Positions 30,961-31,110 of a stretch of DNA of 35,491 nt are shown piece after piece; position 1 is the stretch's first letter; each line of letters opens with the position of its first letter. This DNA comes from an uncultured Defluviitaleaceae bacterium (GTDB taxonomy: Bacteria; Bacillota; Clostridia; Lachnospirales; CAYYRV01). The stretch is from NCBI GenBank assembly GCA_964474135.1, contig CAYYRV010000025.1, forward strand, positions 1 to 35,491. Direction: 5' to 3'. Under the pieces are notes generated by a model. The model worked only from the letters and a program-made list of their open reading frames with translations. It made no database searches and had not been told where the DNA came from. Made by a program: the position numbers and the translations under genes.

Positions 30961-31110
30961 TAACGTGAGTTCGACATAGTTTAATCAGCTTGTGAAACGA
31001 GCTGAAAATTGCAAGTTTTTTCACGTTATGAGCATAGTTTAGCCTAAATTTTGCTAAATTTATGCGAATACCATCAAAGGTTTGACACAGTTTTTTGCGT
31101 CTAACTTACA
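30961..31110. repeat. Most complete copy of MITE-like family 1 (about 150 bp), with the left TIR TAACGTGAGTTCGAC.
   Basis: TAACGTGAGTTCGACATAG-TTTAAT-CAGCTTGTGAAACGAGCTG-AAAATTGCAAGTTTTTTCACGTTATGAGCATAGTTTAGCC...ATCAAAGGTTTGACACAGTTTTTTGCG. The internal hairpin CAGCTTG-TGAAA-CGAGCTG shows compensatory changes in other copies. Confidence 0.6.

Follow-up and report, generated by a model that had tools for sequence, protein, structure and literature searches.

The Correia/NEMIS elements of Neisseria, the bcr1 repeats of the Bacillus cereus group and the BOX elements of pneumococcus are intergenic repeats of 100–160 bp that form strong hairpins and occur in 5′ as well as 3′ untranslated regions. 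BOX has a modular build, bcr1 has been proposed to keep an RNA structure, and effects on expression have been demonstrated for all three. Reviews of these repeats are available (PMC3184786, PMC10969869). Transposable elements of the miniature inverted-repeat type (MITEs) derived from the IS982 family of insertion sequences have also been described, namely MITECca01 of Cardinium (PMC9769881). Members of the IS982 family are ~1 kb long, have 5′-AC ends with the consensus AC(N)6T(N)5TT and generate direct repeats whose length varies; IS1187, ISCth1 (Clostridium thermocellum) and ISEfm1 each make 7-bp repeats (PMC7335449). Here we analyze a family of short repeats in contig CAYYRV010000025.1 of an uncultured Defluviitaleaceae bacterium, whose full 35,491 bp are referred to as the window. 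These repeats most probably form an IS982-derived MITE family, that is, transposase-less relatives of an IS982-type insertion sequence (estimated probability about 0.88), because they share identical ends with IS982 elements that encode a transposase and because copies are flanked by 7-bp target duplications. They are a known kind of selfish DNA and a new family within it, neither a new class of element nor a new kind of RNA element.

Ends and target duplications of the repeat family

The element proper starts with ACGTGAGTTCGAC and finishes with GTCGAACTCACGT, and these sequences are present at the ends of seven two-ended copies. Most ends begin with AC, with AT and GC as variants. An earlier note on this DNA had described 14-bp terminal inverted repeats. 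The inverted repeats are real but start one to a few bases further in, at ACGTGAG; the leading A or TTA is part of the 7-bp target duplication, which accounts for its apparent inclusion in the repeat.

A scan of a viral sequence collection with the exact 16-mer end TTAACGTGAGTTCGAC found it in 20 contigs. In contig L035, two inverted matches 1 kb apart bound a 1025-bp element with 16/16 nt identity at both ends. Its 301-aa open reading frame (ORF; L035:7650-8555, the longest there being 328 aa from an upstream GTG) is an IS982-family transposase (NCBIfam NF033520, 258 bits vs a cut-off of 130) that also matches Pfam DDE_Tnp_1_3 and shares 82% identity with a Prevotella nigrescens copy; tblastn matches in plasmid records carry the annotation "IS982 family transposase". 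Related transposases (50–82% identity) adjoin the same end in six further contigs (L024, L030, L032, L038, L028, L039), and complete copies of the insertion sequence carry perfect 7-bp duplications (TAAATTA in L035, TAAGTAA in L032). The likeness of the window copies to these elements is confined to ~20 nt at the ends. The 5′-AC ends and 7-bp repeats of the window copies fall within the range published for the IS982 family (PMC7335449).

The same ends also bound transposase-less units of 140–300 bp in L022, L033 and L034, among them a 140-bp element in L022 with a perfect TAAATTA duplication. The stretches concerned (L022:3135-3579, L033:3710-4456, L034:353-2191) come from Leptospira, the source of the L022 units, and from other hosts, and combine ACGTGAGTTCGAC ends with unrelated interiors. 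The short Leptospira elements are multicopy (81 places in 31 plasmid records) and appear to be an independent MITE family of the same IS982 clade. One Leptospira plasmid match (H11) adjoins an IS110 transposase and is uninformative.

Target-site duplications, a feature that the earlier note had left to be sought, are present and 7 bp long. Scored with the boundary at ACGTGAG, as in the IS982 copies, perfect direct duplications flank three of the seven two-ended window copies: 3137-3265 (TATATTA at 3130-3136 and 3266-3272), 7473-7501 (TATATTA at 7466-7472 and 7502-7508) and 23413-23564 (TATTTTA at 23406-23412 and 23565-23571). The flanks of the copy at 30963-31111 agree at 6/7 positions (TATAGTA at 30956-30962, TATAATA at 31112-31118). 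The target is A+T-rich and has the form TAnnnTA. Since the flanking 7-mers match within a copy, vary between copies and are direct rather than inverted, they lie outside the element. The probability of a perfect pair is 5e-4 per element for random intergenic 7-mers and 0.037 when restricted to TAnnnTA sites, the latter giving P = 0.0016 for at least three perfect pairs among seven copies. The suggestion that the repeats are a non-autonomous transposable element is thus strongly supported by the IS982-identical ends together with the 7-bp duplications.

Several observations weigh against this reading. Four of the seven two-ended copies have an imperfect duplication, with at most 6/7 positions matching, and the fragments that consist of the end-hairpin only (H4, below) have none. 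Of the published consensus AC(N)6T(N)5TT, the window ends show only AC and the T at position 9; at positions 15-16 the MITE has TA and the L035 insertion sequence AA in place of TT, and the insertion sequence copies found here fall short alike. The 35,491-bp window, the one contig of this genome that was covered, encodes no IS982 transposase, nor is any other transposase gene present among its genes. No further copy of the family was found in genome, metagenome and viral collections, where the right-end pattern and the internal pattern gave only chance matches that were limited to the patterns themselves; we accordingly have not seen this MITE family outside the organism. The nearest relatives, in which empty sites might be expected, have only 57-61% MltG identity and lack synteny. 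Three MltG homologues are 57-59% identical to the window protein, and of the contigs that carry them, the seven covered here (36-41% GC) neither contain a copy nor are syntenic with the window. BLAST of the whole unit against plasmids and phages and literature searches on the end sequence returned nothing relevant.

The earlier note had proposed a partner of the IS200/IS605 TnpB type. The hairpin-forming palindromes of 29–40 nt, the GTAG or CTAC at some hairpin centers (10058, 7473 and 3137 copies) and the cluster at 3078-3381 with its alternating orientation would speak for repetitive extragenic palindromic (REP) or REPIN-like sequences, or for elements with hairpin ends that a single-strand Y1 transposase mobilizes (a REP-associated tyrosine transposase, RAYT, or IS200/IS605 with TnpB). 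Elements of the IS200/IS605 type are not known to have terminal inverted repeats or a target duplication, and carry subterminal hairpins and a conserved cleavage tetranucleotide. The window copies, in contrast, have terminal inverted repeats and 7-bp duplications, and in both ends and duplications they agree with a DDE IS982 element, which argues against the proposed partner. REPs are described as RAYT-associated palindromes of 20–40 nt that lack a target duplication and carry a tag, GTAG or CGTC, that is unpaired and confined to one end; they are not reported in Firmicutes (PMC3733652); the ACGT tag of the window copies is paired, symmetrical and present on both sides. A REP-like or Y1-driven origin is scarcely credible.

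The palindromes could alternatively be operators of a dimeric DNA-binding regulator and mark its regulon. The near-perfect 13+3+13 palindromes at 7473-7501 and 10058-10086 flank feoAB, and the latter adjoins the −35-like TTGACA of a minus-strand promoter-like site (10047-10019). The same 13-mers, however, terminate 1-kb insertion sequences in unrelated phyla, the 7473 palindrome has a perfect 7-bp direct duplication on both sides, and the remaining family members adjoin functionally unrelated genes. We regard the operator explanation as very improbable.

Two further resemblances were discarded. The string AACTCACGTTAA, found in the 38-bp repeat of Tn3-family elements, is similar to the ends of the window copies, but it forms the inner part of a GGGG-ended repeat there and is terminal here. 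GTTCGAC/GTCGAAC resemble the GTTRRRY/RYYYAAC of integron attC sites, but the core order is reversed and housekeeping genes rather than cassettes lie between the copies.

Modular architecture and hairpins

The composite 150-bp unit combines a 63-bp mini-MITE with a linker hairpin and an end-hairpin of nested structure. The first part, module A (~63 bp), consists of ACGTGAGTTCGAC-ATA-GTCGAAC, hairpin H1 (CAGCTTG-TGAAA-CGAGCTG), hairpin H2 (AAAATC-GTAA-GATTTT) and a TCACGT end, and is thus bounded by inverted ends of its own, one at the ACGTGAGTTCGAC start and one internal. Solitary module A is found at three loci (16468-16530, 16595-16660 and 1708-1771). Module B comprises the linker hairpin H3 (GCATAGATTTAGC...GCTAAATTTATGC) followed by H4. 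The latter, AAAAGTTCGATGCAG-TTTTTATT-GTGTCGAAC and then TCACGT, joins a degenerate left end through a loop to the true right end, and H4 with the right end stands alone at six places. At two loci (7473-7501, 10058-10086), two complete ends abut in an identical 13+3+13 architecture of 29 nt. The "solo-TIR palindromes" that had been reported at 7471-7500 and 10055-10090 are thus real, but they are complete 29-bp two-end elements rather than solitary terminal inverted repeats (TIRs).

This architecture suggests how the family may have arisen. An IS982-family DDE transposase of this genome would bind the ACGTGAGTTCGAC ends and insert the element at TAnnnTA sites by cuts that are staggered by 7 bp. 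A deletion derivative of 63 bp and the nested end-hairpin would then have been joined via the linker into the 150-bp composite, presumably in this order; we infer the joining from the junction CACGTTATGAGCA, which is common to three of the four long copies. The whole unit would be moved by its outermost ends. Module A alone, H4 with the end alone and the 29-bp palindrome would be related to the long unit or derived from it by deletion, and the fragments probably result from later deletion and point decay. The 29-bp palindromes may have moved as such or may have formed by internal deletion after insertion. The family would have spread long ago and been eroding since, leaving some copies within 5′ or 3′ untranslated regions, in which their hairpins might have an incidental effect on transcripts.

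Both strands of the units show strong self-complementarity, with minimum free energy z-scores of −3 to −6, and 93.5% of the cells in the consensus stems of the four long copies are paired. The earlier note had described conserved hairpins with compensatory changes. The hairpins are conserved and a few double changes exist, but their number does not exceed that of shuffled controls. We tested covariation against 500 shuffles each for alignments of 9, 4 and 10 sequences, a sample that gives low power. The observed number of paired cells was reached by 224/500, 136/500 and 183/500 shuffles, and the covariation score by 313/500, 136/500 and 108/500; double-change cells in the ten H4 copies, the best measure, were reached by 37/500. 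The covariation is thus within the shuffled distributions. H1 is comparable in three copies only, which contain one true double change (A-U to G-C in the 16468-16530 copy) and one mismatch per copy. Rfam yielded no match at gathering thresholds, none at E<=10 on the unit and none at E<=1 on the whole window.

A role in termination or promotion had also been suggested, and it holds for single copies at most. The pattern of a terminator, a G+C-containing stem with a T-run right behind it, fits one (14162-14197) of the eight H4 hairpins and not the others, and terminator-like sites are not in excess over shuffled sequence (8 vs 6.4 and 7 vs 5.9). The TTGACA box in front of mltG (31082-31087) is not confirmed as a promoter: it has no −10 hexamer at 16-18 nt and is absent from the promoter-scan list. 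A better promoter-like site is located at 30909-30937, just 5′ of the 30963 copy, which would make that copy part of the mltG leader. Multicopy small RNA genes were rejected, as both the upstream promoter and the downstream terminator are inconsistent among the copies.

Whatever their transposon origin, the units or a subset of them could be functional RNA modules (stabilizers in 5′ or 3′ untranslated regions, terminators or processing sites) that are selected via H1-H4. By our own tally, about 9 of the 11-12 orientable copies run in the sense direction of local transcription and 2-3 against it (3137-3265, 32981-33033; one-sided binomial P~0.03), one copy fits the terminator pattern, and the promoter-like site at 30909-30937 would bring the 30963 copy into the mltG leader. 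The unit's own strand gives the alignment its better fold (−24.7 vs −17.6 kcal/mol), but for the 23413 copy the opposite strand does so (−40.5 vs −29.0 kcal/mol). Predicted stems on the unit's own strand contain 20 G-U and 5 A-C cells, a tally biased by the use of that same strand for predicting the structure. Conservation is 82% in paired and 71% in unpaired columns, a gap that is not significant (Fisher P = 0.08). In the decayed copy at 32981-33033, TA/AT has replaced both CG pairs, with each of the two arms altered; double changes can, however, arise without selection by templated correction within quasi-palindromes. These hints of strand-specific constraint are individually weak, some are biased by the choice of structure and one copy contradicts them. 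Further points against selected RNA modules are the covariation scores that shuffles match, the lack of an Rfam match even at E<=1, the functionally unrelated neighboring genes and the erosion of many copies. We consider such RNA modules unlikely. A structured RNA family co-opted as terminators or promoters, as the earlier note had put it, is likewise disfavored by the non-significant covariation, the absence of Rfam matches and the mixed contexts and orientations. One bolder reading would have the MITE family saturate the intergenic DNA of its lineage (~17% in this contig), with sense hairpin modules domesticated as leader or trailer RNA; another would make the 29-bp palindrome itself transposition-competent. 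We hold these readings to be unlikely.

Extent, age and genomic setting

The IS982-derived family is dense. The window (29.5% G+C) carries housekeeping genes, encoding YchF, Band_7, a small alarmone synthetase, a GGDEF-EAL protein, FeoAB, RimO, a ComEA-like protein, L13/S9, ClpA, L28, RtcB and MltG. Those relatives of its MltG that bear names belong to Defluviitaleaceae, Lachnospirales and Clostridiales, the nearest homologue being 61% identical. An nhmmer profile built from the four long copies, together with repeat finding, recovered every locus noticed previously, and module-specific profiles and a covariance model (CM) of H4 added 1708-1771, 6705-6757, 16595-16660, 32345-32392 and 32981-33033. 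The 14-mer as first delimited, with up to 2 mismatches, has 7 matches in the window vs 0.03 expected. A dispersed repeat family is thus real, and its density is higher than the at least seven loci in 35 kb that had been claimed: 15 copies or relics in 35.5 kb, spread over 11 of the 23 intergenic gaps and summing by their coordinates to ~1.1 kb, or ~17% of the 6.6 kb of intergenic DNA. Unit sizes span 29–152 bp. Stops break all six frames of the unit, and its longest open stretch has no match among 1.84 billion protein representatives.

Two of the four long copies are full composites. That of 149 bp at 30963-31111 (plus strand, nhmmer E = 4e-38) lies upstream of mltG (ATG at 31155) and has ACGTGAGTTCGAC as its left and GTCTAACTTACAT as its right end, both aligned with IS982 ends, and that of 152 bp at 23413-23564 (plus, E = 6e-41) lies between convergent genes. 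The 129-bp copy at 3137-3265 (minus, E = 7e-40) is devoid of H1 and antisense to both neighbors. The copy at 12471-12608 (plus, E = 7e-37), directly 5′ of the ComEA-like gene, extends with its degenerate left end into the final codons of a YhbY-like ORF (region 12457-12476).

Module A alone, the 63-bp mini-MITE, is located at 16468-16530 (minus, upstream of rplM; module-A nhmmer E = 3e-23, exact 14-mer match) and retains ACGTGAGTTCGAC-ATA-GTCGAAC, H1, H2 and TCACGT with flanks that match at 4/7 positions. A decayed module-A copy shares its gap (16595-16660, minus, E = 0.0014), and another, with G/C-to-A/T erosion, lies upstream of the Band_7 gene (1708-1771, plus, E = 0.004; left flank TAATTTA, right TATTATA, 5/7). 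The 29-bp mini-elements, to which no strand is assigned, read GCGTGAGTTGGAC-TAC-ATCGAACTCACGT (7473-7501) and ACGTAAGTTCAAC-GTA-GTCGAACTTACGT (10058-10086, between feoA and rimO, with flanks TATATTA and TAATATT).

The short variant at 14138-14200 (plus, CM 68.5 bits) combines the left end ATGTGAGCTTAGC with H4 and includes the terminator-scan match at 14162-14197. Right-end fragments, consisting of H4 and the terminal repeat, occur upstream of the small alarmone synthetase gene (3328-3381, plus; nhmmer E = 4.5e-8, CM 65.1 bits) and immediately 5′ of the GGDEF-EAL gene (6705-6757, minus; nhmmer E = 3e-5, CM 55.1 bits). The decayed right-end copy at 32981-33033 (minus), in which both stem CG pairs have become TA/AT, scores 35.6 bits (CM, E = 2e-5). 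Two assignments are weak: the right-end relic TTTGATGCAA...TCAAACTCACATTAA downstream of mltG (32345-32392, plus; CM 21 bits, E = 0.14) and the degenerate hairpin relic AAGTGAGTTTAAC...GTTCTCACTT right after ORF 2881-3069 (3078-3121, no strand; nhmmer E = 0.02). A look-alike terminator hairpin at L016:6060-6100 was dropped, as it reached 15 bits with the H4 model (E = 4).

The statement that all copies are intergenic holds to within a few bases. The TAA stop of the ComEA-like gene (14136-14138) ends on the first base of the 14138 copy, and the 12471 copy overlaps an ORF end at 12471-12476. Insertions at these two places may have reshaped the C-termini of the genes. Because several copies lie at gene boundaries, as in the shared stop-codon base and the probable mltG leader, they should be considered when gene ends and promoters are called in this genome.

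The earlier note had considered the element active or recently active. The four long copies show 74-83% pairwise identity, many copies are decayed, several by G/C-to-A/T change, and a 12.3-kb contig from the Logan assembly of run SRR10912416, in which the source organism is also found, passes through six copies unbroken. These properties indicate an old family and leave recent activity unsupported. Logan contigs end inside repeats only in 3137-3265 and 23413-23564 (breaks at 3168/3218 and 23457), the two most similar copies, which by our reading share an exact stretch of 31 nt. Logan uses 31-mers. A further break at 15569 falls in the S9 gene, outside the repeats.

The window has further features of note. 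The 700-bp gap 5′ of rplM (16045-16744), which holds two module-A copies, contains two strong minus-strand promoter-like sites (16163-16135, 12/12; 16684-16656, 11/12), and no Rfam leader was detected in it. Long near-perfect palindromes at gene ends (7513-7577, 22443-22490, 32288-32328, 1146-1292), unrelated to the MITE family, are probably bidirectional terminators. A 36-nt motif, TTAGAAT.TGTATT.AATAT.AAGTT.CTGGATTGG, occurs outside the MITE family at 14206-14241 and 21200-21235 with 89% identity. These places lie upstream of ORF 14418-15113, for which no family matched, and of the L28 gene (21323-21523), and the motif could represent a regulatory site common to both. In-frame tandem repeats of 21/24 nt at 13732-13914 give the ComEA-like ORF a Tyr/Gly/Asn-rich low-complexity stretch. 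Directly 3′ of RtcB (27717-28949), the region 28990-29400 (best 29117-29235, plus strand) has tRNA-like pieces, with sub-threshold Rfam scores for YrlA/Y RNA-like (34.8 bits, gathering 69, E = 4e-4) and tRNA (27.1 bits, gathering 29); ARAGORN called no tRNA. This region resembles a non-coding RNA of Y-RNA-like or tRNA-like type that is linked to RtcB.

Comparison with known systems

The assignment accounts for about one sixth of the contig's intergenic DNA, explains the short-read assembly breaks at 3168/3218 and 23457 by repeat copies, and points to IS982 as the transposase family to be sought elsewhere in the genome. If truly transposition-competent, the 29-bp palindrome would be the smallest known bacterial MITE. 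The comparison also delineates an IS982 clade with an unusually conserved ACGTGAGTTCGAC end in Prevotella-like, Leptospira and other hosts, and this clade seems to have spawned MITE families independently in at least the present Clostridia lineage and Leptospira.

The transposase-encoding members of this clade (L035, L024, L030, L032, L038) share with the window copies identical AC-starting termini of 13–16 nt and 7-bp TA-rich target duplications (TAAATTA, TAAGTAA). They are 1.0 kb long and encode their transposase, whereas the window copies encode nothing. The Leptospira elements (L022, L033) are transposase-less like the window copies, with lengths of 140–300 bp and ACGTGAGTTCGAC-like ends. 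They differ in phylum and in their unrelated interior, GTAAGAAAATTGGGGCGAAT..., and this combination is consistent with independent derivation from the same IS982 clade.

In Correia/NEMIS, bcr1 and BOX we find the same short, intergenic and hairpin-forming habit as in the window family. Their sequences are unrelated to it and they belong to different or unknown transposase families. Effects on expression are demonstrated for those repeats, whereas for the window family they are putative.

The closest described counterparts are MITECca01 and MITECca02, which derive from ISCca4 in the Cardinium endosymbiont of Oedothorax gibbosus (PMC9769881). Like the window family, they are transposase-less, shorter than 300 bp and bounded by IS982-family ends, and both sets are multicopy in one lineage with the same family not found in other organisms. 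They differ in host phylum and internal sequence. The parental insertion sequence was identified in Cardinium, whereas none is seen for the present family in the window. Compared with MITECca01 and MITECca02, the window family is older (74-83% identity) and modular, with 29-, 63- and 150-bp forms.

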